DNA of 64,000 nt, from contig JAPLRR010000089.1 in NCBI GenBank assembly GCA_026399075.1, positions 13,149 through 77,148 of the forward strand, in the 5' to 3' direction. Every line of letters begins with the position of its first letter. Position 1 is the first letter of the stretch. Shown here piece after piece: positions 10,040-58,818 of this stretch. The notes below the pieces were generated by a model. The model worked only from the letters and a program-made list of their open reading frames with translations, made no database searches and had not been told where the DNA came from. The DNA is from Methylococcales bacterium. Its GTDB lineage: Bacteria; Pseudomonadota; Gammaproteobacteria; Methylococcales; Methylomonadaceae. The position numbers and the translations under genes are program-made.

Positions 10040-10048
10040 GGAATAAGA

Positions 10049-12583
10049 GTGGCGGAAAAAAAAATTTTGATCATTGATGACAATGATGATTTTGTGCTGA
10101 GCCTAAAGCAACAAGCCCAGCTAGGCGATAATCCACAGCGCTATTTGATTTGTCAATTAACCCAACCCGACATTTTGGATGTTATCAGGGAACAAGCCTA
10201 CGCCATCCAATCGGTGTTTATGGATTATGATATGGGTGAACACACCGCAGAGCGTGTGATGGAGGCCTTATCGCCGTATTTAAACTGGAACAAAGTTCGG
10301 GTATTTTGGTTTAGCGGAGATGAGGCACTGAATACACTAGCTCTACTACAAGCCCGAAAACATTACCCGACCTTAAGCCCTGAGTTTTTGCGTAAACCCT
10401 TTTTATTGGCGGATTTGGAATCCTTGGTCTCAGCTGATTTTAAACTGGCCCGGCAATGGCTCAATTTCCCTAAACCCTTACGGGTTATCAATAAGCAAGG
10501 CCATGTGGTTTACACCAATGAGCATTGGCTAGGTGCCAGCAATTCACCAGCACCCGGAAACTTTATTAATCTTCGTGGTTTTATTACCGACGAGCACTCT
10601 TATTTTAAAGAACGTCCAGATTCAGCTAACAGTGAGGCTGGCTATTTCCATTTATGTTCGTTTGCCAGCGATGATGGGGACTATTTATTGCAATACGCCA
10701 TACCAGAAACAGCGGATGTCTCGGGAAATAAATGGCAAGGTTTGGTTGAAAAAATGGCGGCGGCTTTACAGGAAATGGGCTATACACGAATTCGATTTTG
10801 TCGTTATCTCAATGTACCCAATGGGGTTGTTGGCTATGAATTGAGCCAAGATAATGATTTAAGCCAAGGCGTATTGGCTTTAAGCTGGAGCAGCACGAAA
10901 CTGAATGAAATAAACGACGAAGGGGAGCAGAAAGCCTCTATACGCGAACCTTTGACAGGCGATCTGTTGAAACGGATACGCGAGATGGTGGCTCAATATC
11001 GATCAGATAAGGAAACGAGTAAGCTGAGTTACCGGATAGCCACCCAGCCAGATTGTAATGACCCTTGGCGGAACCTACTGATACCGCCGGGTGCTGAAGA
11101 TTACTGTGTTGTGGAGCTGCCTTTATTTTCGGAACATAAAAAAGTGTTATCTGTTATCGGTAACCCTGGATTATTGGGTATGCTGATGTTTGACCGCTAT
11201 GATGCCACACAAAATCGCTTTTTACCGATTACGGCTGAGGATATAGGAAAGCTGGAAAAAACCTTGCTACAATTTTGTTTTGAACTGATTAAGTCGATGG
11301 AGTCTGACATATTAAAAACGCAACAGGACAATATGCTGGCTTATGCGGAATTGGATGAAGAAATGGCGGGTGGTTTTGCCACCTCTAATGCCTTGTTAAA
11401 AAAATTATTGCAACATGCGGTGGAAGATGTGGGGGCTATTTCCGGCTATATCACCGAACGCCATTATTCAGGTTATGAGGTGACGATTGATTGGTTAGAA
11501 AATAAGTCAAGCGGTATATGGCTTTTCCAACATGCTATTTATACCGAACATGCCTTTTGTTTACCTGCCGTACAATGTTGGAGGCAGGGTAAAACTATTG
11601 CCTTTCCGGCCACTGGACAAAACCAGGCAGACCGAAAAAATGGGGTGGTTGAAGCCTACAACGATCCAGACCAAGTACTTTATATTGGGGATAAAACCGA
11701 TATTGATATAAGGGAGCGTTGGAGTGATTATTTACAAAATAATGTGCGGTCAATTGTTGCCTTGCCTGTTTTTGTCAATAATGAGCAAATAGCCGCAATT
11801 GTTTTACATGCTGACACCGATTACCATTTTGATTATGAACGCTTGGAACGCTTAAAAATATTAACCTATCGCGCAGGTTGGTTATTGACAGTGGCCCGCC
11901 ACATTGATGACAGGAAATTGTTTTTAGATGGTGTTATGCACGAAATCAACACCAATCTTAACCCCTTGGCGCATTTTCTAAGACACTTGGAAGTCACGGA
12001 GGCTTCCAGAGCAGGGTTAATCCGTTGCCAACATTCGGTTAGGCGCTTGGAAATGGCCAGCAGGAATTTATTATTGCTAACGGCTACCAATAATGCCAAG
12101 GGCATTTATATTGATCCACCCATAGCTTGCGGTGAGCTGGCAACGGTACTACAGGAATTGGCGGTCATATATGGGTCGGTCATGGATGACCGTGGTTTGA
12201 GCCTTGTGTTCCACCCCCCTTTAAACACCCCAATATGGGAAACCAAACTACCTATGAGTCGGGAATGGTTAATGCATGTTTGTGCCAATATATTGGACAA
12301 TGCGGTTAAAGCTTCCCGAAGGTCAACGATAACGGTTTTGGCAGAAAATAGCCTCGATATGTTTTCATTGAGTCTTAGCAATAGTGGTCATTTATCGCCA
12401 CAACAATGTATCCAAGCGTTTGACCAACATTACTATTCTTTAGAAGGGCAAGGTTTTCATGTGGGCTTGGCCAGCTGTAGGCAGTTGATGGGTCTTCATC
12501 GTGGCTCAATTGATTTGACCAGTTCTTTAGAATCTGGGCAAATTACTGCGACACTTAGCTGGCCTTTAGGAGCAACACCATGA
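10049..12583 (+). CDS. Cytoplasmic receiver-sensor histidine kinase with a degenerate ATP lid (REC, PAS/GAF-like region, HisKA, HATPase_c-like)
   Basis: 844 aa with a GTG start 9 nt after the upstream stop. The receiver has ILIIDDNDD, FMDYDMG, WFSG and LRKPF. H-box is MHEINTNLNPL, N-box ILDNAVKAS. The G1 DxGxG is replaced by SNSGH. G2-like is GQGFHVGLASCRQLM. No TM segments. Confidence 0.8.
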   Translation: MAEKKILIIDDNDDFVLSLKQQAQLGDNPQRYLICQLTQPDILDVIREQAYAIQSVFMDYDMGEHTAERVMEALSPYLNWNKVRVFWFSGDEALNTLALLQARKHYPTLSPEFLRKPFLLADLESLVSADFKLARQWLNFPKPLRVINKQGHVVYTNEHWLGASNSPAPGNFINLRGFITDEHSYFKERPDSANSEAGYFHLCSFASDDGDYLLQYAIPETADVSGNKWQGLVEKMAAALQEMGYTRIRFCRYLNVPNGVVGYELSQDNDLSQGVLALSWSSTKLNEINDEGEQKASIREPLTGDLLKRIREMVAQYRSDKETSKLSYRIATQPDCNDPWRNLLIPPGAEDYCVVELPLFSEHKKVLSVIGNPGLLGMLMFDRYDATQNRFLPITAEDIGKLEKTLLQFCFELIKSMESDILKTQQDNMLAYAELDEEMAGGFATSNALLKKLLQHAVEDVGAISGYITERHYSGYEVTIDWLENKSSGIWLFQHAIYTEHAFCLPAVQCWRQGKTIAFPATGQNQADRKNGVVEAYNDPDQVLYIGDKTDIDIRERWSDYLQNNVRSIVALPVFVNNEQIAAIVLHADTDYHFDYERLERLKILTYRAGWLLTVARHIDDRKLFLDGVMHEINTNLNPLAHFLRHLEVTEASRAGLIRCQHSVRRLEMASRNLLLLTATNNAKGIYIDPPIACGELATVLQELAVIYGSVMDDRGLSLVFHPPLNTPIWETKLPMSREWLMHVCANILDNAVKASRRSTITVLAENSLDMFSLSLSNSGHLSPQQCIQAFDQHYYSLEGQGFHVGLASCRQLMGLHRGSIDLTSSLESGQITATLSWPLGATP

Positions 12584-17207: not shown

Positions 17208-18760
17208 AATCTGACTCCAGGTAAATTGAATTCAATAGCCATTTTTACCAATTCTGCATTATTGCCTTGGGTTGTAGTGGGTTTGGTGGGCTGCGTTTTG
17301 GCGATGCGTAAGGATGTTATGCGTTTGCCTGCCAAACTTGCCGGCAAGGTGATGACGGCTTGCGGCCCTTGGCCATTGCCGCCTAAGATATAGTCCCCCA
17401 TTTCGTAGTGCCCTTGTTCATTTAAAACTTTTGCCCAGACTGTAAATTCGCTGTCTTTGCCGGCAACTAGCTGAATGCTTTTGATGCTGACGGGGCGCTC
17501 AAAATTGACGGCAATATGGCGTGTTTTTACTGGCATAAACAGCAACTCTTGGTCGTTGTTTGGATACAAGAATTCCCATGACGCTTCACCATTGGCAACC
17601 AGTTTGAGGCTGGCAGGCAGCCAGTCATTAATCCTTGGCTGGAATGGCTGGGGTGCGCTACGCTGCCCTAGGCTTTCCGGGTATTTTGTCTCCAGCAAAT
17701 TGGCGACTTGTTGGGCATAAAAATACGTGGCCCGGGGGCCAGGATGGCCATTGGCAGGGTTGATAGCCCATGGTAATTGTCCGAGAAGTTTGTTGCCGCA
17801 ACACGCTAAAAACGTGGGCAGTAAATCAACGAATTCAAGCCCTGATTCCCGCATTGCAACAGAAACAGGCTGGTAACGGGGTTCAAAATATTCTTGGTTT
17901 GGGGCGCTGGGTGTGGTTACAAAAAATGTCGGGACCTTAAGGGTGCTTAGTTTGGCTGACAATTGTTTGAGCACATTTTTGTACGCATCGAAATTCTTGC
18001 CTTCCAACAGTTTTAGTTCCCATTGTTGGTAGGGATAGCCAGTGGTGTCGTCTGGGGTGAGTTTTTGTTTTAGTTGGGCGCGTGACTTAATGACAAAGCT
18101 AAGGTTGGGCAATAAACCCTCAAATGGCAGCAGCATTTTATCAACAGAGCCATCAACGGGGAGTTGTTTTACTAAATCATTGCCGGATGCGTCTTTTATT
18201 TGCGGGTCATTGGTGACGTAGCCAAAAATAACCGCGCTAGGGTGTATGTTGTCGGCTAGATTGTTGTTGAGCCAGCTGTAGTGGTCTTGGGTGGATGCTC
18301 CGTTGGTGCCAGCTGCAACCACTTCCAGGTTGTTATAACCACGGCGCTCAAGTTCCCATTGTAGTTGTCGCCACCAGATGGTGTTGATATTGGTGTGGCC
18401 ATCCCCCCAAATAAATGAGTCGCCAAGTACCAGGATGCGTTGCCTGCCTTGGCTTAAATCAGGTGCATAACCCAAGCTAGTGAACAGCGGCTGGCTAGGG
18501 GAGTTTTGTATTTTTTTATAGTTTTCTTGGTTGATGATGCGGTTTTCATCTTGCCATTCCTTTGAATCCATGGCGGCTTGACCGGCCAGAACCCCTAATT
18601 CCCTATCCACAAAAAAAGCTATCAATAAAATCAGGCCAATAAACGCTGCAAAATAAGCAGCCCCACGCAATGGTAAAACAGGGCGCGGGCCTTTGGGGGT
18701 CTCCAGCCATGCCAATGAAAAACAATACTTATCTTTTTGCATAAGGTGTCGGGTTCTCAA
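17204..18760 (-). CDS. Membrane-anchored SGNH/GDSL-type hydrolase with a C-terminal beta-sandwich-like domain
   Basis: 518 aa. It has an N-terminal TM helix (YFAAFIGLILLIAFFV) and SGNH block I (ILVLGDSFIWGDG). Its stop overlaps the carbamoyltransferase start (ATGA). An alternative start exists at 18742. Confidence 0.7.
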   Translation of the reverse strand: MRTRHLMQKDKYCFSLAWLETPKGPRPVLPLRGAAYFAAFIGLILLIAFFVDRELGVLAGQAAMDSKEWQDENRIINQENYKKIQNSPSQPLFTSLGYAPDLSQGRQRILVLGDSFIWGDGHTNINTIWWRQLQWELERRGYNNLEVVAAGTNGASTQDHYSWLNNNLADNIHPSAVIFGYVTNDPQIKDASGNDLVKQLPVDGSVDKMLLPFEGLLPNLSFVIKSRAQLKQKLTPDDTTGYPYQQWELKLLEGKNFDAYKNVLKQLSAKLSTLKVPTFFVTTPSAPNQEYFEPRYQPVSVAMRESGLEFVDLLPTFLACCGNKLLGQLPWAINPANGHPGPRATYFYAQQVANLLETKYPESLGQRSAPQPFQPRINDWLPASLKLVANGEASWEFLYPNNDQELLFMPVKTRHIAVNFERPVSIKSIQLVAGKDSEFTVWAKVLNEQGHYEMGDYILGGNGQGPQAVITLPASLAGKRITSLRIAKTQPTKPTTTQGNNAELVKMAIEFNLPGVRL

Positions 18761-18965
18761 TTCTAAAAAGCAGTTTATGCCAGCACTTTAGGTTTATGAT
18801 GCATCGGCATAGGAATAATGTGGGGTATGGGTCGTTTGGGCTAGCAAGCTAATGGTGATGGCTTTGGGGTTTAATTTTAAATTCGCTGTGGCAAGCTTGG
18901 ATGGGCAAAGCTAATTTAAGTATTCTAGCATTTGCCTTTGGGTAGGGCTATATGGCTAGCCAAGC

Positions 18966-20324
18966 CTAATCACCGATTTTTGTGCCTGATTCGTCAACGA
19001 CTGGCACAGGTGATTGGCTGCTGGGCACACGGCGCTTGCCGACGTTTTTTTGGTCACGGTGGCGAATTTTGACTTTTTCCGCCGCAACTTTTTTGGGTTC
19101 CACTTTCTTTTTAATGCCTGCGGCTTTTCCAGAAGCCTTCAATTTTTTTGGGCCAGTATACTTTCCTACCAGTTCCTTAATGGTCCGGCGGGTGAATTTT
19201 TGCTTTAAAAACCGCTCAATGCCGGACATTAAATTCCATTCAGTGCTTTTGACCAAGGCAATGGTAAGCCCCAGTTCATCAACGCGGCCAGTCCGGCCTA
19301 TGCGGTGGATATAATTGATGCCGTTCCTGGGGACATCAAAATTGATCACCAGGTTAATGCCTTTGATGTCCAAGCCACGGGCGGCAAGGTCGGTGGCAAT
19401 CATGATGTTAATCTCGCCTTCACGGTAAAGTTCCATCATCCGGTTGCGGTCTTTTTGGTCCATTTCGCCGTGCAGCACACCCACCCGAAGTTTTTGCCCG
19501 CGCAAAGGCCCGCGCAAGGCATCGGCTTGCAGCCGGCTATTGGTGAACACTAAGGCTTTGTCATAGGGTTCATTAAGCAGCAGCCAGGCCAGCAGCTTTT
19601 GTTTATGGTCATTGTCGTCGGCCACAACGATTTGTTGTTCTATGTTGCGGTGGCCATCGTGTAAGGTGTTTAAGGCCACCACTTCATGGTTTTGCAGCAC
19701 TTTATCAGCCATCTTGATGACCCCAAAGTGGGTCAAGGTGGCTGAAAACAGCAAGGTTTGCCGTTGGGCATTGCAGGTTTTGGCAATGGCCAGCACATCT
19801 TCGCTAAAACCCATGTCCAACATGCGGTCAGCTTCGTCCAGAACCAGGACTTCAAGATGGCTGAAGTTGGGGGTTTCTTGTTCCATCAGCTCCAACAAAC
19901 GGCCTGGCGTTGCAATAACAATCTGGGTGTTTCTTCTCAGCATGTTTTGCTGTAGCCTAAAGTCATCACCGCCAGTGATGATGCCGACACTAAGGCTAGT
20001 GAATTCAATGAGCTGTTGGCATTGCTTAAAGATTTGTTGGGCCAGTTCGCGGGTCGGTGCGAGTATCAACACCCGGGTGCCGAAGGTTTTGGTAGGCAGG
20101 GTGAGTAAATGATGGAGTGCGGGCAGTAAAAAAGCCGCCGTTTTACCACTGCCCGTTTCGGCGCTGACCAGTAAATCTTTATGTTCCAAGGCCAAGGGGA
20201 TGGCTTGTAGCTGTACCGGTGTGGGTTGGTCAAAACCGAGTTTTTTGACGGCCTTGAGTAGGGGTTCGGCCAGTGCTAGACTTGAAAACGAAGGCGGCGG
20301 GGTGGTCGTAGGATTTGGTTGCAT
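18966..20324 (-). CDS. rhlE: ATP-dependent DEAD-box RNA helicase (RhlE-like)
   Basis: 452 aa. Motifs: Q-motif region, AETGSGKTAAF, PTRELA, DEADRM, SAT, HRIGRTGR, and a basic C-terminal tail. Confidence 0.9.
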   Translation of the reverse strand: MQPNPTTTPPPSFSSLALAEPLLKAVKKLGFDQPTPVQLQAIPLALEHKDLLVSAETGSGKTAAFLLPALHHLLTLPTKTFGTRVLILAPTRELAQQIFKQCQQLIEFTSLSVGIITGGDDFRLQQNMLRRNTQIVIATPGRLLELMEQETPNFSHLEVLVLDEADRMLDMGFSEDVLAIAKTCNAQRQTLLFSATLTHFGVIKMADKVLQNHEVVALNTLHDGHRNIEQQIVVADDNDHKQKLLAWLLLNEPYDKALVFTNSRLQADALRGPLRGQKLRVGVLHGEMDQKDRNRMMELYREGEINIMIATDLAARGLDIKGINLVINFDVPRNGINYIHRIGRTGRVDELGLTIALVKSTEWNLMSGIERFLKQKFTRRTIKELVGKYTGPKKLKASGKAAGIKKKVEPKKVAAEKVKIRHRDQKNVGKRRVPSSQSPVPVVDESGTKIGD

Positions 20325-51029: not shown

Positions 51030-51116
51030 TGGTACCGAGAAGAGGACTTGAACCTCCACGAGCTTGCGCCCACTAGCACCTGAAGCTAGCGTGTCTACCA
51101 ATTTCACCATCTCGGC
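51030..51116 (-). tRNA. tRNA-Leu (anticodon CAG)
   Basis: The minus strand reads GCCGAGAUGGUGAAAUUGGUAGACACGCUAGCUUCAGGUGCUAGUGGGCGCAAGCUCGUGGAGGUUCAAGUCCUCUUCUCGGUACCA. It folds as a cloverleaf with a long variable arm, anticodon loop CUAGC-UUCAGGU-GCUAG, a GGUUCAAGUCC T-arm and an encoded CCA. It is close to E. coli tRNA-Leu(CAG). Confidence 0.92.
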
Positions 51117-51337: not shown

Positions 51338-53593
51338 ATGCCCTTGAAGTCTAAAAAAGACGTTGATTTTAAATCAACAAAAGATCCATACGCCCAGCGC
51401 GAAGCTGAAAAGTATGAAAACCCCATCCCTAGCCGGGAGTTGATACTCCTGGCCTTAGAACAGGCCGGCAAACCCTTGTCGCGCGTAGACATTGCCGACG
51501 CATTCGCGCTGGACAATGAAGAAAATCTGGAGGCATTGCGCCGCCGACTTAGGGCCATGGAACGGGATGGGCAATTATTGTTCAACCGTAGCCAACAGTA
51601 CTGCTTGGTCAACAACAAAGACCTGATAGTCGGGCGCATTATCGGCCATGCCGATGGTTTTGGCTTTGTTCGTCCTGATGATGGTTCAGACGATTTGTAT
51701 TTGTCGCCCCGCGAAATGAACCCCTTGCTACATAATGACCGGGCTATGGTGCGGATAGCCGGCATCGACAAAAAAGGCCGCCGGGAAGGCGCGGTGGTTG
51801 AAATTCTGGAGCGTAACACCCACCAAATTGTAGGCCGTCTTTATAAAGAAGACGGTTTTATCTATGTTGTGCCAGACAATAAAAATATCGCCCAAACGGT
51901 CTTAGTGCAAAAAGGCGGGGCGGGTAAAGCCAAGCAAGGGCAAATCGTGATTGCCGAAATTGTCGAGCAACCCACCAAACTGCGCCAGCCCATAGGCCGT
52001 ATCATTGAAGTGCTGGGCGACCATCTTGCGCCTGGCATGGAAATCGAAATGGCGATACGCGCGCATGAGTTGCCGCATATTTGGCCTGAAGAATTGCTGG
52101 AAGAAATTAAAACCTTAAGTGCTGAAGTCCCCGAAGCTGCCAAAGAAAACCGTGTCGATTTGCGCAATATCCCCTTAGTCACTATCGACGGCGAAGACGC
52201 GCGCGATTTTGACGATGCCGTGTATTGCAAAAAAACCCCAAAAGGCTGGAAATTGCTAGTAGCGATTGCCGACGTGTCACATTATGTGCAAGTCAATAGC
52301 GAGCTGGATAAAGAAGCCAAAAAACGCAGCACTTCGGTGTATTTTCCTGAGCAAGTCATCCCGATGTTGCCGGAAATATTGTCCAACGGTCTGTGTTCAC
52401 TGAACCCAAACGTGGACCGTTTATGTATGGTCTGCGAACTGCTGATCGATGCCCAAGGGCTAGTGTTGCGCACCAAGTTTTATGAAGCCGTGATGCGCTC
52501 GCACGCACGGCTGACTTATACCGAAGTTGCCAGTATGCTGGTCGATGGCGATAAAGGGCTGGCGGAAAAATACAAACCCTTAATGCCGCATTTGCGCGAA
52601 CTTTACGCCTTGTACAATGTCATGCGCATCCAACGCGAGCTGCGCGGGGCGATGGATTTTGACACCCAAGAAACCCGCATCGTGTTTGGCAAAGACCGAA
52701 AAATTGAAAAAATCATCCCCGTGGTGCGCAATGATGCCCATAAGTTGATTGAAGAATTCATGATTACCGCCAACAGCGCGGCGGCAAGATACCTCAATGC
52801 CAAAAAAATCCCGCGTTTATTGCGTATCCACGATGGCCCTAGTGTTGATAAATTATTAAACCTGAAAACCTTTTTAGGTGAACTGGGCTTAAAGTTTGGT
52901 GGCGGCGTTAATCCTTCGCCTTTAGATTATATGCACTTGGTTGATTCGATTAAAGATCGCCCTGATGCGCACCTGATCCAAACCGTGTTGCTGCGCTCGA
53001 TGTCGCAAGCCGTGTACAGCCCTGACACCAAAGGCCATTTTGGTTTGGCGCTAGAGGCTTATGCGCATTTCACTTCGCCGATCCGCCGTTATCCCGATTT
53101 GCTGGTACACCGCGCCATCCGCCATTGTTTGTCAGGCAAAAAAGTCGAGGCGTTTGTTTATGGGATGCCCGACATGGTATTGCTGGGCGAACAATGTTCC
53201 GCCTACGAACGCCGCGCCGACGAAGCCACCCGCGACGTGGTCAGCTGGCTGAAATGCGAATACATGATGGACAAAATCGGCGAAGAATTCCCCGGCATCA
53301 TTTCCGCTGTCACTTCGTTTGGGTTTTTTGTCGAACTCGCCGATATTTTTGTCGAAGGCTTGGTGCATATCAGCAACTTAGGCCAAGATTATTTTCACTT
53401 TGACCCGACCAGCCACCAATTAAAAGGCGAGCGCACCGGCATGAATTTCCGTTTAGGCGATAGCGTTAAAATTCGTGTGGCACGCGTGGATTTGGACGAA
53501 AAGAAAATGGATTTTGAGTTATTGCAAAAACAGGGTTCGGCGAAAACAGCGGATGGCAGTGGTAAGGTTAAGAAGAAGCGGCGTAAGAAATAG
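51338..53593 (+). CDS. rnr: Ribonuclease R
   Basis: 751 aa with an N-terminal HTH/cold-shock region, an RNB catalytic domain (TIDGEDARDFDDAV), a C-terminal S1 domain (FPGIISAVTSFGFFVEL) and a lysine-rich tail. Confidence 0.95.
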   Translation: MPLKSKKDVDFKSTKDPYAQREAEKYENPIPSRELILLALEQAGKPLSRVDIADAFALDNEENLEALRRRLRAMERDGQLLFNRSQQYCLVNNKDLIVGRIIGHADGFGFVRPDDGSDDLYLSPREMNPLLHNDRAMVRIAGIDKKGRREGAVVEILERNTHQIVGRLYKEDGFIYVVPDNKNIAQTVLVQKGGAGKAKQGQIVIAEIVEQPTKLRQPIGRIIEVLGDHLAPGMEIEMAIRAHELPHIWPEELLEEIKTLSAEVPEAAKENRVDLRNIPLVTIDGEDARDFDDAVYCKKTPKGWKLLVAIADVSHYVQVNSELDKEAKKRSTSVYFPEQVIPMLPEILSNGLCSLNPNVDRLCMVCELLIDAQGLVLRTKFYEAVMRSHARLTYTEVASMLVDGDKGLAEKYKPLMPHLRELYALYNVMRIQRELRGAMDFDTQETRIVFGKDRKIEKIIPVVRNDAHKLIEEFMITANSAAARYLNAKKIPRLLRIHDGPSVDKLLNLKTFLGELGLKFGGGVNPSPLDYMHLVDSIKDRPDAHLIQTVLLRSMSQAVYSPDTKGHFGLALEAYAHFTSPIRRYPDLLVHRAIRHCLSGKKVEAFVYGMPDMVLLGEQCSAYERRADEATRDVVSWLKCEYMMDKIGEEFPGIISAVTSFGFFVELADIFVEGLVHISNLGQDYFHFDPTSHQLKGERTGMNFRLGDSVKIRVARVDLDEKKMDFELLQKQGSAKTADGSGKVKKKRRKK

Positions 53594-53600
53594 CAACATG

Positions 53601-53629
53601 GTTGGGTTAGGTGCTAGCCGTAACCCGAC
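53601..53629. repeat. REP-like hairpin downstream of rnr (GTTGGGTTAG-N9-GTAACCCGAC)
   Basis: Imperfect ~9-bp inverted repeat 8 nt after the rnr stop, at the left border of the AT-rich cassette. Confidence 0.4.
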
Positions 53630-53686
53630 AAAGACGCTTAAATTTACCTGAACTAAACAGCCATTAAACTTTAAAGAGATTTAGTT

Positions 53687-55075
53687 ATGAAATTTATTGA
53701 CGTAAAAGTCAAAAATTTGGGAAGACTAAAAGAGGCGGAATTTCACATTCGCCCGATGACGGTGATTACTGGCCCGAATGGGACAGGCAAAAGCTTTTTC
53801 ACTAAGTCATTGTATTCTATTTTAAATGTCATTAATAAAAATGTGTACCATGAATCGGTTACACAAACGATAAGGCAAATTCATCTTCAATTTGATGCGC
53901 TTGTTGGTACTATTCCCTGGGCTGGCACAGATGATTTTACGTTTAAGGCTAGGATAAAACGTAAACTTGATGATTTACAAAGTGAGTTTGACGTTGCCAG
54001 TAGTTGGAAAATTAATGATTATTTAACATTTTCTATTTCAAAAGTTGATGCTGTTGAATCAATGCGTAAATCCTTTTCCTATTATTTAAGTGATCTTACG
54101 AGTAAGCCAACAAAAAGCAATTCCATTACAAGTATTTCTAAGGCGATTAATAAAAGCTTTGATATTTTTATAATACAGCTTAAAAATCCATCAAAGCATT
54201 ATGATGATTTATTTGATGCACAAATTCAAAATGAACTGAAAGATAATTTCCAAATTTCTTTGTTAAGCGAACTCATTAGCTTTGGGGAAGAAAAGATTGA
54301 AATTAACATTGAAGATCTTTTAGAGATTGAATTAAGCAATAATAAGAATAAATTCAAACTCGGGACAGATTTTATTGATGATGTTTCCAGCTTATCCAGC
54401 GTCGTTTTTTTTGAATCACCTGCCTATTGGAAGGTGAGAGACGCATTAAAATCAGCAAAAAATAATCTAAATATCCCGCCTTGGATGGTTAAGAAAAAGA
54501 ATGATGTTTTAACAGGTGTCCCCAAATATTTTTATGATTTGGATAACGCGCTAAACACCAAAACAAAAACCGAAGGTAAGTTTAAAAAAGCAGCCGCGTT
54601 ATTAGAGGCGACTCTAGGCGGCGAATTTGTTTTTAAAGATGACAACCTAAGCTTTAAAGATAATGCCGGACGGGAAATATCCAAAAACCTAGTTTCTTTT
54701 GGCATGACTAACTTAGGCATGATTCAGGCTTTACTCAAGCACAATGTGATTACCGATGGCTCATTTGTGTTTATTGACGAGCCAGAAACCAATTTGCATC
54801 CCGATTGGCAAGTGAAGTTGATGGAAGTGTTGCTGGTTTTGGCGCAGGAAGGGGTAAATATTGTCATTACCACCCACAGCACAGATTTATTAAAAGCCCT
54901 AGAGGTTAATTTAAAATTACAACAAATACCCCCCGCAGATTTTCTTTCCGTCCATTATGTGGAATTAGACGGCAAGTTGTTGGAATTTGAATCTAAAAAC
55001 TCTGATGCACAACTAGTCGAGGCAAGGACTTTGCTAAATTCGGCTTACGAAACACTTTATTTCAGTGCTTTGTAG
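53687..55075 (+). CDS. AAA_21/ABC-type ATPase with a long helical insertion (defence-system-type ATPase)
   Basis: 462 aa with AT-rich codons. Walker A is VITGPNGTGKSFF, the signature-like segment is SFGMTNLGMI, the Walker B/D-loop is FVFIDEPETNLHPD and the H-loop is ITTHS. About 290 aa rich in K/N/D/S lie between Walker A and the signature. Confidence 0.8.
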   Translation: MKFIDVKVKNLGRLKEAEFHIRPMTVITGPNGTGKSFFTKSLYSILNVINKNVYHESVTQTIRQIHLQFDALVGTIPWAGTDDFTFKARIKRKLDDLQSEFDVASSWKINDYLTFSISKVDAVESMRKSFSYYLSDLTSKPTKSNSITSISKAINKSFDIFIIQLKNPSKHYDDLFDAQIQNELKDNFQISLLSELISFGEEKIEINIEDLLEIELSNNKNKFKLGTDFIDDVSSLSSVVFFESPAYWKVRDALKSAKNNLNIPPWMVKKKNDVLTGVPKYFYDLDNALNTKTKTEGKFKKAAALLEATLGGEFVFKDDNLSFKDNAGREISKNLVSFGMTNLGMIQALLKHNVITDGSFVFIDEPETNLHPDWQVKLMEVLLVLAQEGVNIVITTHSTDLLKALEVNLKLQQIPPADFLSVHYVELDGKLLEFESKNSDAQLVEARTLLNSAYETLYFSAL

Positions 55076-55081
55076 GCGCGT

Positions 55082-55684
55082 ATGTCCATTGAACTCTCTG
55101 TATTTTTACAAACGGTTGAACATTCCAAAGGCACTGAAACCTCTGGATTAATGGCTTATAAGCTGGATGATGCTGATGGCATTGATGATGCTGATGGCAT
55201 TGCCGAGGCTATAGGCTTTAAAACACATGTCATTAACAAGGTAGATTATTTTCTGGAGCTAGGCGCACATGTGCAATTGATTGAATGCTCCGATCTTCAA
55301 GACGACATAGCGCGTTGTCACAGTCATATTGGTCAGGCTTTAGAAAAACTGCGCCAAGATACCAGTATTTCAGAAAAATGGAAAAGGGAGCAGTTAAATG
55401 TCATCAAGAAAGAAGTGTGGCGAGAACTTCGTGATGAGTTTTTTAAAAAATGGAGTGGCTCTATCGCAGTTATTGAGCGCTTGTACCGTAAAACGAATCG
55501 CCCTAGTGATATTGACCCCAGCTATAGCTTGTTGATTGTTTGCAAGAATAACACTGATGTACGGATGTTGGATGCGTTCAGAGAAATATTAGACGGGCAA
55601 TGTCGCATGGGGAAGCCCGTGATTGTTTGTAACACCCAACACCTTCCTCAAAACTTAATTAAGCTGATCAGCGCTGCTGGATAG
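55082..55684 (+). CDS. Hypothetical 200-aa protein, partner of the AAA_21 ATPase (no recognisable domain)
   Basis: The start lies 6 nt after the ATPase stop. There are no TM segments or signal peptide. The N-terminus is acidic and contains the tandem DDADGI DDADGI. The central helix is K/E/R-rich (EKWKREQLNVIKKEVWRELRDEFFKKW). I could not find an HNH, TOPRIM or PD-(D/E)xK motif with confidence. Confidence 0.6.
   Translation: MSIELSVFLQTVEHSKGTETSGLMAYKLDDADGIDDADGIAEAIGFKTHVINKVDYFLELGAHVQLIECSDLQDDIARCHSHIGQALEKLRQDTSISEKWKREQLNVIKKEVWRELRDEFFKKWSGSIAVIERLYRKTNRPSDIDPSYSLLIVCKNNTDVRMLDAFREILDGQCRMGKPVIVCNTQHLPQNLIKLISAAG
55166..55201 (+). repeat. Perfect 18-bp tandem duplication (GATGATGCTGATGGCATT x2) inside the partner gene
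   Basis: Read directly from the sequence. It encodes DDADGI-DDADGI in frame. Confidence 0.9.
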
Positions 55685-55717
55685 CTTACACAACCTGTAA
55701 TCCTGCCAAAATTCATC

Positions 55718-56461
55718 ATGAAACTCAGCAAACTCTACGGCCTACACTCCGTGCAAGCCGCCCTTGATTATTCCCCCAGCAAAATCCAACAAGCGTGGCT
55801 GGACAGCGGGCGGCAAGACAAACGCCTTAACCAACTTAGTGAAGACTTATTGGCTTTAGGCATTACCCCCGAAAAAGTCGATAAAAAACGCCTAGATCGT
55901 TTGGCGGATGGCAGCAACCACCAAGGCATCGTGATTGCAGTGGAAATGCCGGGCGAATTGTCTGAACACGAACTCAAAACGGCTGTGGAAAACCTTAACG
56001 AACCGGCGCTGTTTTTGGTGTTGGACAATATCCAAGACCCCCATAATTTGGGTGCGTGTTTGCGTACGGCAGATGCCACCGGCGTGCATGGCGTGATTAT
56101 CACCAAAGACAAAGCTACGGGCATTACCCCGACGGTGTGCAAAGTCGCCAGTGGCGCGGCGGAAACTGTGCCAGTTTATCAGGTGACTAATTTGTCGCGC
56201 ACCTTGCGGTGGCTCAAAGACGAAGGCTTATGGATTATTGGTGCGGCTGGGGGAACGGCGGATAGCCTTTATAAAACCGATTTTACCGTGCCGATGGCTT
56301 TGGTGATGGGCGCGGAAGGCACGGGTTTACGGCGTTTGACCAAAGACCATTGCGATATGTTGGTGGCGGTGCCGATGCTGGGGCAGGTGGATAGCTTAAA
56401 TGTGTCGGTGGCAACTGGCGTGTTGCTTTATGAGGCGGTGCGTCAGCGCTTGCAGTCTTAA
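55718..56461 (+). CDS. rlmB: 23S rRNA (guanosine-2'-O-)-methyltransferase RlmB (SpoU/TrmH family)
   Basis: 247 aa with an N-terminal SpoU_sub_bind region (LYGLHSVQAAL) and the SPOUT motifs LDNIQDPHNLGACLRTADA, LVMGAEGTGLR and SLNVSVATGVLLYE. Confidence 0.9.
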   Translation: MKLSKLYGLHSVQAALDYSPSKIQQAWLDSGRQDKRLNQLSEDLLALGITPEKVDKKRLDRLADGSNHQGIVIAVEMPGELSEHELKTAVENLNEPALFLVLDNIQDPHNLGACLRTADATGVHGVIITKDKATGITPTVCKVASGAAETVPVYQVTNLSRTLRWLKDEGLWIIGAAGGTADSLYKTDFTVPMALVMGAEGTGLRRLTKDHCDMLVAVPMLGQVDSLNVSVATGVLLYEAVRQRLQS

Positions 56462-56595
56462 AGCCACTGCATCCACTTTTCGTGCTTAAGGGGTGCAAGC
56501 CACCATAAATACATTTATAAATATTAGAACTTTCTAACAAACTCATGTATTATCCGCTACAAATAGGGTATTCCTGTTTATTAGTGAGGTTTTTC

Positions 56596-58818
56596 ATGAG
56601 AGTCCGTTTCCCCGTTTTACAATTTTTGTTGTTCCTCTGCGCATTGTTTGCGTTTTCCCCTGTCTTTGCCAAGAGCGACGGGCGTGCCCAGTCTTCGCCC
56701 TTGGCTGTTAGCCAAACCTCGGTCACCCTGAAAGTGGGGGGTGTTGCCACGCTTACGGTGACCAATACCAGTGGTACGGTTTCCGCCAGTTCAGGCGACA
56801 AATCGATAGTTACTGCGGCCTATGCCAATAAGGTGTTGACCCTGAAGGGGGTAAAGGCTGGCTCGACTAAGGTGACGGTAAAAGACAGCAAGACCAGTGT
56901 CAGCATTGCCGTCAAAGTGGATGCCGTGATTGTAAGTAGTCTGACCGCAAGCCCGACTTCTGTTGTTATGGTGGTGGGTGCTACGTCGGGCATCACTGTC
57001 AGCAATGCATCGGGTACAGTAACGGTCAGTTCCGCCAACAAAGCCGTGGCCACCGCAAGTTATGCCAGTGGCATAGTCACTGTGAAAGGCGTTGCGGCGG
57101 GCTCTACGACCTTGATCATTAAAGACAGCAAGCAAACCTTGACCTTGCCAGTCACTATCACCGCCGTACCTGTACCGCCAGTGGCCGGAAATTACACTTT
57201 ATTGGCGTGGAATGACTTGGGTATGCACTGCATGGATGGTTTGGACTTTTCTGTGTTTGCCATTTTGCCGCCTTATAACACGCTCCATGCCCAATTGAAG
57301 GATAAAGCGGGTAAGTTGGTCACTAGTGGTGTCACCCTGACTTATGAGGCCGTGGCGGATAGCACGGGTTCGATTAACACCAATAGCTACACCAAAACCA
57401 ATTTCTGGGGCTGGGTGGGCAGTTTGGTGGGCTTGCAGCCAGCCAATGATATTGGGCTTAATTTGGATGGCCTGGCCACGGGTAATCCTGCGCCTGGCAA
57501 TGAAACGCCTTCTTTAGTGCCAGCACCTATGGCTTACAATACCGAGTATCGCTGGTTTGAGGCGGAAGGTATCCCCATTACCCCCTTTGATGACCAAGGC
57601 AAAAAGAATTTCTATCCGACCGTCAAAGTTGTGGCTAAAGATGTGAACGGCAAGCAGTTGGCATCAACAACCACGGTGTTGCCAGTCAGTGATGAAATGA
57701 CCTGTAAGGCCTGCCATACCTCAACGGCTTCAAGTAACCCCGCTGAAGTTGCCGCTAAGCCAGCGGCTGGATGGGTGAATGATGCCAATCTGGATAAAGA
57801 CTGGAAAAGGAATATTTTACGCCTGCATGACGAAAAGCAATTGACAAATTCGCTTTACCAATCTGCCTTAATCCAAAGTGGTTACAATACGGGCGGTTTA
57901 TTGGCGACAGCGGATGCGGGTAAACCAGTCTTATGTGCGGGTTGCCATGCTAGCAATGCGTATTTTGACAAACAAAACAAAAAGACTGTGATGGGCGGTA
58001 TGGCAGGTATCAGACCGTTTACCCAAGTCTTGCACACCAAACATGCCTTAGTGAAAGATCCGTCCACCCAATTGGCCTTGGACAGCAATGGTGACCGCAC
58101 CGCTTGTTATTTGTGCCATCCGGGTTCGGCGACGAAGTGTTTGCGTGGCGCTATGAGCAAAGCAGCGGACACCAGTGGTAAGTTGATGAGCTGCCAAAGT
58201 TGTCATGGCAATATGGCGGCAGTGGGTAGCCCAGCCCGCCAAGGCTGGTATAACGAGCCAACTTGCGAGTCTTGCCACAACAGTGCCGCAACTAACAAAC
58301 GGGCAATGTCTGCCTTAAATGCCAGTGGTGTGGCAATTGTGCCTAGCGACCATACTTTCGCTACTAACGCCAACGCGCCAGTGCCAGGTTTGAATTTATA
58401 CCGTTTTAGCACGGGCCACGGCGGCTTGCAATGTGAAGCTTGCCATGGGGCCACCCATGCCGAATATCCTTCTAGCCATGTGGATGACAATACCCAAAGT
58501 TTGGCTGTCCAAGGGCACACTGGGACGATAGCTGAATGTAAAGCCTGCCATAGCGTGGTACCGACCACTGTCAACGGTGGCCCGCATGGTATGCACACAA
58601 CTGGCGATGCTTGGGTTAAAGCGCATGAGTCAGCAAACAAAAATGGCACGGCAACTACACCGAGTTGTGCATATTGTCATGGTACGACCAGCGCAGGGAC
58701 GCCGTTGAGTGCCATTAAAGTGGCAAAGACGGTTAATGCGGGGGATTTTGGCATTAAAAATTGGCCTGTAGCTTACCAAGTTAGCTGTTTTAGTTGCCAT
58801 AATGGCCCTAATCCTTGA
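56596..58818 (+). CDS. Secreted multihaem (nine CXXCH) c-type cytochrome with two N-terminal Big_2 Ig-like domains
   Basis: I place the start at ATG 56596 (GAGG SD). The signal peptide is MRVRFPVLQFLLFLCALFAFSPVFA. Two ~70-aa Big_2-like repeats occur (..VTLKVGGVATLTVTN..GVKAGSTKVTVKD.. and ..VVMVVGATSGITVSN..GVAAGSTTLIIKD..). The CXXCH motifs are CKACH, CAGCH, CYLCH, CQSCH, CESCH, CEACH, CKACH, CAYCH and CFSCH. Confidence 0.85.
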   Translation: MRVRFPVLQFLLFLCALFAFSPVFAKSDGRAQSSPLAVSQTSVTLKVGGVATLTVTNTSGTVSASSGDKSIVTAAYANKVLTLKGVKAGSTKVTVKDSKTSVSIAVKVDAVIVSSLTASPTSVVMVVGATSGITVSNASGTVTVSSANKAVATASYASGIVTVKGVAAGSTTLIIKDSKQTLTLPVTITAVPVPPVAGNYTLLAWNDLGMHCMDGLDFSVFAILPPYNTLHAQLKDKAGKLVTSGVTLTYEAVADSTGSINTNSYTKTNFWGWVGSLVGLQPANDIGLNLDGLATGNPAPGNETPSLVPAPMAYNTEYRWFEAEGIPITPFDDQGKKNFYPTVKVVAKDVNGKQLASTTTVLPVSDEMTCKACHTSTASSNPAEVAAKPAAGWVNDANLDKDWKRNILRLHDEKQLTNSLYQSALIQSGYNTGGLLATADAGKPVLCAGCHASNAYFDKQNKKTVMGGMAGIRPFTQVLHTKHALVKDPSTQLALDSNGDRTACYLCHPGSATKCLRGAMSKAADTSGKLMSCQSCHGNMAAVGSPARQGWYNEPTCESCHNSAATNKRAMSALNASGVAIVPSDHTFATNANAPVPGLNLYRFSTGHGGLQCEACHGATHAEYPSSHVDDNTQSLAVQGHTGTIAECKACHSVVPTTVNGGPHGMHTTGDAWVKAHESANKNGTATTPSCAYCHGTTSAGTPLSAIKVAKTVNAGDFGIKNWPVAYQVSCFSCHNGPNP

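Follow-up and report, generated by a model that had tools for sequence, protein, structure and literature searches.

A two-gene cassette lying between the housekeeping genes rnr and rlmB of a Methylococcales bacterium is probably an anti-phage module, likely of the abortive-infection kind, in which an ABC ATPase is paired with a nuclease; it would be a divergent relative of HEC-02 residing in an exchangeable hotspot. Its accessory, exchangeable character was read directly from the comparison of related loci, and its defence activity and nuclease chemistry are what we infer by analogy with characterized systems.

In the window (the whole 64,000-nt stretch of DNA analyzed; all coordinates are window positions on the + strand), the hotspot is flanked upstream by the core gene for RNase R, rnr (51338..53593; Pfam RNB, 4e-110, with CSD2, OB_RNB, S1 and HTH_12), and downstream by rlmB, encoding a 23S rRNA 2′-O-methyltransferase (55718..56461; SpoU_methylase, 6e-45, and SpoU_sub_bind, 3e-19). 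Between them lie two co-directional open reading frames, in the same reading frame and 6 nt apart. The first (53687..55075) encodes a 462-aa OLD/PtuA-type (AAA_15/AAA_21) ABC ATPase, the proposed sensor and scaffold, and the second (55082..55684) a 200-aa protein of an unannotated family, here called the partner, which is proposed to be a divergent PD-(D/E)xK/NERD-like effector. The rlmB ATG starts 33 nt past the partner stop codon. GC content along the window drops from ~0.50 in the flanks to 0.28-0.41 in the cassette, a deficit of ~10–15 points (0.353 for the ATPase gene and 0.421 for the partner gene, versus 0.496 for rnr and 0.530 for rlmB). Since GC3 is also low in the cassette genes (0.34 and 0.41, versus 0.56 in rnr and 0.60 in rlmB), the deviation is present at synonymous sites. 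This layout was as the initial annotation had described it. The same annotation took the deviating composition as a sign of acquisition, and as a mark of recent arrival that argument failed. Composition was measured in 15 other loci, among them syntenic loci from four genera in which rnr is 80-91% identical, and in each of them the cassette was AT-rich compared with its flanks. Because long-standing syntenic copies are equally AT-rich, low GC is no sign of recent arrival, and a recent horizontal insertion was rejected as a reading of it.

The spacer 3′ of rnr contains a hairpin (53604..53626) which folds with a stem of ~11 bp and one bulged base. It had been annotated as a REP-like hairpin at the left border of the cassette. 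The hairpin is real; its interpretation as a REP-type or border repeat was ruled out by its single copy within the window and its presence in empty junctions, since a GGGTTA..TAACCC hairpin motif occurs just upstream of rlmB in five of these (L032, L033, L035, L036 and L038). Because the motif recurs in related empty junctions, it represents a native element of the rnr–rlmB spacer, and the cassette is inserted downstream of it. Where empty and occupied junctions were compared, neither target-site duplications nor inverted repeats were seen at the ends of the cassette. A conserved, putatively ribosome-binding motif, AAAGAGATTT (53673..53682), precedes the ATPase start, and AGAGA(T/C) variants are found directly upstream of the ATPase gene in six other loci (L001, L005, L006, L010, L059 and L066). 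Promoter and terminator scans gave counts no better than those from shuffled sequence, and no convincing terminator was found between rnr, the pair and rlmB, which share a strand and are tightly spaced.

Using rlmB as an anchor, we surveyed the junction in 80 related metagenome loci. It was empty in 43, and the remainder included five loci with this cassette, one with a decayed copy (L088), five with AbiU/AIPR (6e-47), four with PDC-M03 (PDC-M03A and B, 3e-45 and 6e-33) and one with HicAB (L091; HicA, 1e-19). In L003, the cassette stands in tandem with AbiU. Exchange was apparent even within a species: two strains of Methylovulum psychrotolerans are 100% identical in rnr and 97.6% identical in the flanks, and their ATPases and partners share 63% and 44% identity, respectively. 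Divergence of rnr showed no rank correlation with divergence of the cassette. Because of this, and of allele replacement within a single species, simple vertical inheritance at the locus was rejected. The rnr–rlmB junction is a core-gene-flanked, recombination-exchangeable hotspot for defence and toxin genes; a search of the literature for a hotspot at this site returned nothing relevant. The view of the cassette as an accessory insertion in a conserved junction, not universal at the locus, is borne out by the empty junctions and by the other defence and toxin-antitoxin (TA) cargo, and these, together with gene linkage, support an exchangeable module composed of an ABC ATPase and a small effector.

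Linkage of the two genes was complete. ATPase and partner were adjacent in 16/16 genome loci, and also in Aeromonas, Photobacterium, an uncultured gammaproteobacterium and three viral (prophage-like) contigs; in L018, L021, L024 and L025 the ends of the two genes overlap by 8-29 nt. Synteny is kept in Methylobacter, Crenothrix, Methylocucumis and Methylovulum. In other Methylococcales the pair lies between lpxI and lpxB, and in Aeromonas, Photobacterium and Acinetobacter it is found elsewhere. Most chromosomal copies have housekeeping genes as neighbors and lie outside classical multi-system islands, and stop-start ATGA overlaps of the cassette were seen with rlmB and, in L018, with lpxB. On two of the prophage-like contigs (L108 and L109) the cassette is directly downstream of a phage CI repressor gene, and on the third (L110) it neighbors an SRA-HNH endonuclease gene. 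These three contigs were recovered by the ATPase-pattern scan only; a scan of IMG/VR with the partner pattern found nothing, and tblastn searches of INPHARED phages and PLSDB plasmids with the window and prophage-type proteins gave no match. Co-occurrence of the homologues was a check proposed in the initial annotation; they are linked in all loci examined and accompanied by known defence genes in some.

The ATPase was readily assigned. It matches AAA_21 (1e-19) and AAA_15 (1e-18) in Pfam, phrog_14430 over its full length (8e-94), and a series of defence ATPases in PADLOC, led by HEC-02A (7e-33) and followed by PD-T4-4_A (3e-27), AriA (8e-23), HEC-01A (8e-18), PtuA (5e-16) and AbiLi (8e-13). 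All motifs of the original description were present in the translation, and its AAA_21 type was confirmed by Pfam. Walker A, GPNGTGKS (residues 29-36; 53771..53794), has five residues invariant among 37 homologues (G29, N31, G34, K35 and S36). The C-terminal ABC half (54695..54880) carries the signature-like SFGMTNLG (337-344), the Walker B/D-loop FVFIDEPETNLHP (360-372) and the H-loop TTHS (395-398), with S337, G339, M340, N342, G344, D364, E365, P366, E367, H371, T396, H397 and S398 invariant in the same set. Separating these regions is a hypervariable, all-helical insert (residues ~53-190; 53843..54256), a candidate trigger-sensing surface, in which helices span residues 53-188 of the AF2 model (pLDDT 85.7). 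Mean pairwise column identity is 0.29 in the insert versus 0.71-0.73 in the ABC halves, and nucleotide identity between the Methylovulum strains collapses at this point. Across the cassette, variability is focused in the insert and in partner helices 73-112. The best Foldseek matches to the model were PtuA proteins of Septu and retron systems (E 2.6e-8, probability 1.0).

The partner belongs to a rare family, comprising ~95 clusters at 50% identity in 1.84e9 representatives. The window protein itself had no match in Pfam, PADLOC or NCBIfam at E≤1 and only one chance-level match in PHROG, and its profile matched no PDB chain sequence; no known housekeeping family was among its matches. AF2 produced a confident model (pLDDT 87), and Foldseek comparison with PDB and BFVD returned no significant neighbor (best E 0.14 and 0.013, TM ≤0.26). 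PD-(D/E)xK-type nucleases (Bax1, Can2, arenavirus L endonuclease and Mus81) appeared in this weak list at chance level. Conservation was more informative. In an alignment of 65 diverse family members (A2), D35, D55, E68 and K123 never vary, and Y56 is nearly invariant. D55, Y56, E68, S70 and D71 lie on a candidate catalytic β-hairpin, VDYF...QLIECSD (55244..55294), whose D55...E68-x-S/T70 segment forms a candidate PD-(D/E)xK-like core, except that nearly all members have Ser or Thr at position 70 in place of the canonical Lys. L025, a distant member, has the full D...ELK motif. The most conserved helix of the family, EFxKKWSGSIAVIERLYRK (55418..55492; column identity 0.73 in alignment A1), carries K123 and E119, the latter at least 90% conserved in A2.

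Nucleases of the PD-(D/E)xK superfamily share an αβββαβ core in which an Asp opens strand 2 and (D/E)xK lies in strand 3. In the partner model, D55 precedes a strand (56-60), E68 is within the next (63-69), and helices and a further strand (147-154) follow, an order which in the model would fit this core with a helical insert. The initial annotation had recognized no HNH, DUF4435/TOPRIM or PD-(D/E)xK motif in the partner. The first two statements hold, and the third must be amended in light of the candidate D55...E68 core. A candidate assignment to DUF4276/TOPRIM, as in HEC-01, was discarded: the A1 HMM scored a genuine DUF4276 protein from L018 at E 0.35, and none of the 65 members had a Pfam match.

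The closest relationship of the cassette as a whole is with HEC-02. This system, Hma-embedded candidate 02 of Dickeya dianthicola (WP_024108366.1 and WP_024108365.1), was shown experimentally to protect against phage, with both genes needed, and its two genes overlap by 4 nt according to the coordinates in Table S2 (Payne et al. 2024, bioRxiv 10.1101/2024.01.29.577857). HEC-02B is the NERD-like nuclease partner of HEC-02A and has a (D/E/Q)xK motif. The top two PADLOC models for the window ATPase are both HEC-02A (PDLC04213, 7.1e-33; PDLC04214, 1.2e-29), and BLASTP aligned it with part of the tested Dickeya protein, namely a stretch of 169 aa at 26% identity (E 4e-16) and the segment around Walker A. 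For the partner the evidence comes from the family: the window protein matches no HEC-02B model, yet HEC-02B was the only library family that recurred among members (10, 5, 5 and 1 on four models; best E 5.3e-7, from a distant member), with colinear matches from >12 independent members. Reciprocal HMM comparison with the tested HEC-02B family gave E 4e-5 to 1e-2 with the D...E hairpin colinear, and hhalign of A2 against the tested-type HEC-02B family (A4) gave E 1.3e-3 on the same hairpin, at a probability of only 18.7%. The hairpin aligns with D43...E56-V-K58-D59 of HEC-02B. Both systems have the ABC ATPase gene first and a small partner second (~170-190 aa in HEC-02), with gene ends coupled or overlapping, and the D...E-x-(K/S)-D hairpins can be aligned. 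In contrast to HEC-02, the window ATPase is 120 aa longer (462 versus 342), with only ~26% identity in the C-terminal half; the partner family replaces the ExK Lys by Ser or Thr, places the invariant K123 on another conserved helix and includes a ~65-aa helical insert; and the cassette lies outside any Hma system and would not be called by PADLOC. We conclude that the cassette and HEC-02 are probably related, though very distantly. Calling it an undescribed system, as the initial annotation did, is therefore too strong, given the best match of the ATPase to HEC-02A and the matches of distant partner members to HEC-02B. PADLOC, one of the checks proposed there, placed the ATPase with HEC-02A and other defence ATPases and gave nothing for the partner.

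Several other systems combine a related ATPase with a small effector. Among solved structures, the ATPase most closely resembles those of Septu and retron PtuAB, in which the ABC ATPase PtuA accompanies the HNH nuclease PtuB (9e90, 9kjy, 8eea and 8ee4; E 3e-8 to 5e-7, probability 1.0). The Septu logic of an ATPase oligomer holding a small nuclease is the same, although TM is only ~0.4 and the sequences are similar only around Walker B, and Pfam and PADLOC found no PtuB-type HNH match in the partner or the 65 family members. PD-T4-4 was reportedly described by Vassallo et al. in 2022 as an ATPase with a PD-(D/E)xK nuclease. Its A-subunit models match the window ATPase, which is of similar length, nearly end to end (residues 5-407 against 2-396 of 474, E 4e-22; 3e-27 with another PADLOC model), and its partner has been assigned to the PD-(D/E)xK class (bioRxiv 10.1101/2025.07.10.664194); PD-T4-4_B models matched 0/65 partner-family members at E≤1. 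PARIS likewise joins an AAA_15/AAA_21-clade ATPase, AriA, to a small effector, AriB (DUF4435/TOPRIM), and no DUF4435, TOPRIM or AriB match was found among the 65 members. HEC-01 (ATPase plus DUF4276) and AbiL have an ATPase of the same clade and the same layout, HEC-01 differing in that the window partner is without DUF4276. In related genomes, comparable positions inside operons are taken by HEC-01 and AbiL-like pairs (prfB|lysS in L018 and hemE|trpA in L025).

On the model of Septu/PtuAB, PARIS and HEC-02, we propose that the PtuA-like ATPase oligomerizes through its ABC heads and keeps the small partner inactive. The hypervariable helical insert could recognize a phage-derived trigger, upon which ATP binding or hydrolysis would free or activate the partner. 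The partner would then cleave nucleic acid through an acidic metal site (D35, D55, E68 and possibly E119) together with K123, stopping the infection.

Other accounts of the cassette differ in how much of this they retain. A defence module with a non-nuclease partner (an adaptor, a regulator, or an effector with other chemistry and a new fold), its resemblance to HEC-02B being convergent or too remote for function to be predicted from it, would be in keeping with the fruitless Foldseek search despite a confident model, the missing ExK Lys, the low hhalign probability (~19%) and a most conserved helix without counterpart in the HEC-02B alignment. We consider it improbable in view of the invariant D/D/E/(E)/K set, typical of metal-dependent phosphoesterases, the breadth of the colinear HEC-02B matches, the intact motif of L025 and a strand order in the model that would suit the αβββαβ core. 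Quite unlikely, too, is a selfish, TA-like addiction module without a role in phage defence, in which the ATPase would restrain a toxic partner and loss of the cassette or disturbance of the operon would be harmful. In favor of such a module, a bona fide TA pair, HicAB, fills the slot in L091, the cassette is spliced by ATGA overlaps into essential or near-essential operons, and Pfam describes AAA_21 as a 'putative AbiEii toxin, Type IV TA system'. However, with 43 junctions empty and one copy decayed, loss of the cassette has no obvious consequence, its closest characterized relatives (HEC-02, PD-T4-4, Septu and PARIS) are all phage-defence systems, and defence cargo is typically found beside the cI gene of prophages. 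A TA function would not exclude one in abortive infection.

An accessory role in RNA metabolism, such as ribosome or RNA quality control, for a pair co-transcribed with RNase R and RlmB would agree with the shared strand, the tight spacing without a convincing terminator from rnr through rlmB, and synteny in four genera. It is effectively refuted by the distribution of the pair, and we regard it as highly improbable: the pair is missing from the majority of related junctions and occurs at lpxI/lpxB, at other sites in Aeromonas, Photobacterium and Acinetobacter and on prophage-like contigs, an allele only 44-63% identical has been swapped between strains with identical RNase R, and in each genome the codon composition of the pair looks foreign.

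A joint reading, which we hold to be unlikely, is that the partner is a new effector fold or a non-nuclease and, separately, that the cassettes follow an 'operon-embedding' strategy. On the first point, an ancestral PD-(D/E)xK core may have lost its strand-3 Lys and rebuilt the active site with K123 and E119 from the family-specific helix; alternatively, the partner may have acquired a non-nuclease activity. On the second, HEC-01, AbiL-like, AbiU, PDC-M03 and the present cassette are all co-directional within housekeeping operons (rnr|rlmB, lpxI|lpxB, prfB|lysS and hemE|trpA), with ATGA overlaps, an arrangement which suggests that such splicing is selected. If this is true, constitutive transcription of the core genes, together with translational coupling, would ensure that the defence cargo is expressed and kept stable; exchange would use the conserved flanks as homology arms and involve no mobile-element machinery.

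Returning to the reading we prefer, an ABC-ATPase-plus-nuclease module related to HEC-02, the cassette would bring to this class a rare, unannotated effector family that the PADLOC 2023 models miss. Methanotrophs are ecologically important and, to our knowledge, little is known of their phage defences. The rnr–rlmB junction of Methylococcales offers a compact defence/toxin hotspot whose cargo can be mined by position alone. Should the seamless splicing of several unrelated defence cassettes into operons of housekeeping genes prove general, it would make a useful guide for searches and would be relevant to the expression of defence genes and to their exchange in the absence of mobile elements.

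The window copy has one further feature. Its partner gene contains a perfect 18-bp in-frame tandem duplication, GATGATGCTGATGGCATT x2.1 (55166..55202; TRF, 100% matches, score 74), which doubles DDADGI around the invariant Asp/Gly loop. The 6-aa duplication is absent from 32/32 aligned homologues, and the AF2 model has low pLDDT at the duplicated loop (residues 31-40). A duplication in so conserved a loop could impair the window partner.

The 462-aa ATPase gene (53687-55075) and the 200-aa partner gene (55082-55684) are co-directional and lie between rnr (51338-53593) and rlmB (55718-56461). The initial annotation had described a two-gene cassette in this gap, with its genes 6 nt apart and AT-richer than its surroundings. 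Both ORFs were confirmed, and GC content is 0.28-0.41 along the cassette as compared with about 0.50 in flanking DNA. GC3 is 0.34 and 0.41 for the ATPase and partner genes versus 0.56 and 0.60 for rnr and rlmB, so that codon usage, and not amino-acid content alone, accounts for the deviation. Cassette GC is 10-15 points below the flanks in nearly all genomes measured, and 5 points below in loci L004 and L015. The REP-like hairpin that had been taken as the left border does exist, as a 23-nt element 3′ of rnr, but it is present in a single copy in the window and five related junctions that are empty, with rnr directly adjoining rlmB, carry the same motif just 5′ of rlmB. It is therefore a native spacer element, with the cassette downstream of it. 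On the strand opposite rnr, and ~220 nt upstream of it, is a tRNA-Leu(CAG) gene (51030-51116, minus strand); the stretch from this gene to the cassette showed no integrase or other gene of a mobile element. Downstream of rlmB, a 757-aa ORF (56545-58818, plus strand) appears to encode a multihaem cytochrome unrelated to the cassette: it has many CxxCH-type motifs, as well as repeated Ig-like segments and a signal-like segment at the N terminus.

We surveyed the junction in 80 metagenome loci anchored on close RlmB relatives. The junction was empty in 43 and held an intact cassette in 5 and a decayed copy in 1 (L088). Other cargo consisted of AbiU/AIPR (5 loci; Pfam 7e-46, PADLOC 6e-47), the HipA-like kinase and HIRAN protein of PDC-M03 (4 loci; 3e-45 and 6e-33) and HicAB (1 locus; HicA 1e-19). 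No rnr was found upstream of rlmB in 15 loci, owing to a different gene order or an upstream stretch under 1 kb, and upstream sequence was too short in the remaining 6. In L003 the cassette and AbiU stand in tandem. Decayed cargo was seen at two loci: a deletion of ~1.5 kb at L088:2355-2838 has left only the ATPase 5′ end (codons 4-64) and the partner 3′ end (codons 134-196), and the apparently empty 306-nt rnr-to-rlmB spacer of L031 retains the first ~25 codons of PDC-M03A (MGREGQWI...).

Cargo is spliced seamlessly into the operon, with boundaries at stop-start overlaps of sequence ATGA. In six loci (L005, L006, L007, L014, L059, L094) the partner stop and rlmB start share this overlap, which is the same form taken by the rnr stop and rlmB start at empty sites (L041, L043, L052, L054); the AbiU/AIPR start overlaps the rnr stop in L034. 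Neither target-site duplications nor terminal repeats were seen at these boundaries. Among 7 syntenic loci, a small sample, the cassette's divergence was uncorrelated with that of rnr, and the ATPase and partner did not diverge in step with each other. Two Methylovulum psychrotolerans strains (L112 and L013) share 100% identity in RNase R, 98% in the downstream gene and about 97.6% in flanking DNA, with ATPases 63% and partners 44% identical, which represents replacement of the allele between conserved flanks. The apparent recombination breakpoints are about 160 nt inside the ATPase gene and about 70 nt past the partner stop. In both strains rlmB is no longer downstream, and a glgC-like nucleotidyl transferase gene follows the cassette.

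Linkage of the two genes holds elsewhere: they are adjacent, ATPase first, in 16/16 reference-genome loci, and are also adjacent in Aeromonas, Photobacterium, an uncultured gammaproteobacterium and three IMG/VR contigs. On two of these contigs the pair is directly downstream of a phage CI repressor gene, with the CII gene divergent, and on the third its neighbour is an SRA-HNH endonuclease; searches of GenBank phages and PLSDB plasmids yielded no copy. The same cassette has a second housekeeping-operon slot in the lpxI/lpxB gap, which it occupies in other Methylococcales in the same-strand order lpxD-lpxI-[pair]-lpxB (L008, L017, L018 at 8617-10609, and L019) and probably also in L009, L011 and L012; in L018 the partner stop and lpxB start overlap by 4 nt (ATGA). 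This distribution effectively excludes a housekeeping role tied to rnr and rlmB. The prfB and lysS genes are a classically co-transcribed housekeeping pair, and L018 carries between them (18012-19789) a full-length HEC-01, comprising a 394-aa ATPase (PADLOC 3e-189) and a 197-aa DUF4276 protein (2e-74). In the uncultured gammaproteobacterium (L025, L026 and L027; 8001-11447), two ATPase and small-protein pairs lie back to back in the hemE/trpA gap; the first is a distant member of the cassette family (454 and 159 aa), and the second is AbiL-like (AbiLi 6e-47, with a weak PDC-M38B match).

Every ATPase motif quoted in the initial annotation was found in the translation. The protein matches AAA_21 (1e-19) and AAA_15 (1e-18) in Pfam, aligns end to end with phrog_14430, a family of unknown function (8e-94), and has as its best PADLOC matches HEC-02A (7e-33, 1e-29), PD-T4-4_A (3e-27), NsnB, PDC-M47A, AriA (8e-23) and PtuA. 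A confident AlphaFold2 model (pLDDT 85.7; 37 homologues as input) shows an ABC head split by an all-helical insert (residues 53-188), and the model comes closest, among solved structures, to PtuA from Septu and from the retron Ec83, Ec78 and Eco7 complexes (E≈3e-8, probability 1.0, TM≈0.4). Within the family, the ABC halves are conserved (mean column identity 0.71-0.73) and the insert is hypervariable (0.29).

Pfam, PADLOC and NCBIfam gave no match to the partner, and its sole PHROG match is at chance level. When 1.84 billion representative proteins were searched exhaustively by profile, the family came to just 95 clusters, each of standalone proteins 160-220 aa long; its main and distant subgroups are clearly homologous (hhalign 99.6%, E 3e-24). 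The only residues invariant across 65 diverse members are D35, D55, E68 and K123; G39, Y56 and E119 are kept in at least 90%. The structure model is confident (pLDDT 87, pTM 0.84) and has no significant neighbour in PDB or BFVD. The window's gene carries a perfect 18-bp in-frame tandem duplication (55166-55202) that doubles DDADGI, including the invariant Asp/Gly loop position; none of the aligned homologues shares this duplication, not even the closest (83-86% identical).

HEC-02B was the only recurrent PADLOC family among the 65 members scanned, with the small-protein models PDLC04229, 04220, 04227 and 04226 matched by 10, 5, 5 and 1 members (best E 5e-7) in alignments colinear across the N-terminal half. 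HEC-02 is a validated two-gene Dickeya system of an ABC ATPase and a NERD-like PD-(D/E)xK protein, both of which are needed (bioRxiv 10.1101/2024.01.29.577857). Comparison with the tested HEC-02B family gave a weak but consistent signal (hhalign E 1e-3, 19% probability; reciprocal HMM E 4e-5 to 1e-2), and both types of alignment pair K27-x-D with K-Y-D and D55…E68-x-(S/T)70-D71 with D43…E56-V-K58-D59. In contrast to HEC-02B, the partner family departs from the defining ExK, with S/T replacing the strand-3 lysine and its invariant lysine on a conserved helix specific to the family; the full D…ELK motif does occur in one distant member, L025. The partner is probably, though not certainly, a very divergent HEC-02B/PD-(D/E)xK relative; a defence module with a non-nuclease partner is unlikely.

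We favor, as the probable reading, a divergent HEC-02-like ABC ATPase and nuclease defence module in a core-gene-flanked defence/TA hotspot; that the cassette is a pure addiction module seems unlikely. In the proposed mechanism, drawn by analogy from Septu, PARIS and HEC-02, ATPase subunits resembling PtuA would form an oligomer that holds the partner, the variable helical insert would sense a phage cue, and release or activation driven by ATP would let the partner cleave nucleic acid. The suggestion that the system is undescribed goes too far: the ATPase clade and architecture are known, with HEC-02 a plausible distant parent. The partner family is unannotated and not recognised by the PADLOC models used (version 2.0.0, 2023). 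A literature search for an rnr-rlmB hotspot found nothing relevant, and both the hotspot and the pattern of operon splicing seem previously undescribed.

A/B labels seem inconsistent in some PADLOC-DB v2.0.0 HEC models: PDLC04146, labelled 'HEC-02B', has 344 positions and matches ATPases while PDLC04145, labelled 'HEC-02A', has 170, and PDLC04144 'HEC-01B' matches the ATPase while PDLC04143 'HEC-01A' matches the DUF4276 protein. Public records name the tested HEC-02B (WP_024108365.1) and a Halomonas homologue 'cysteinyl-tRNA synthetase', which is probably an annotation error.
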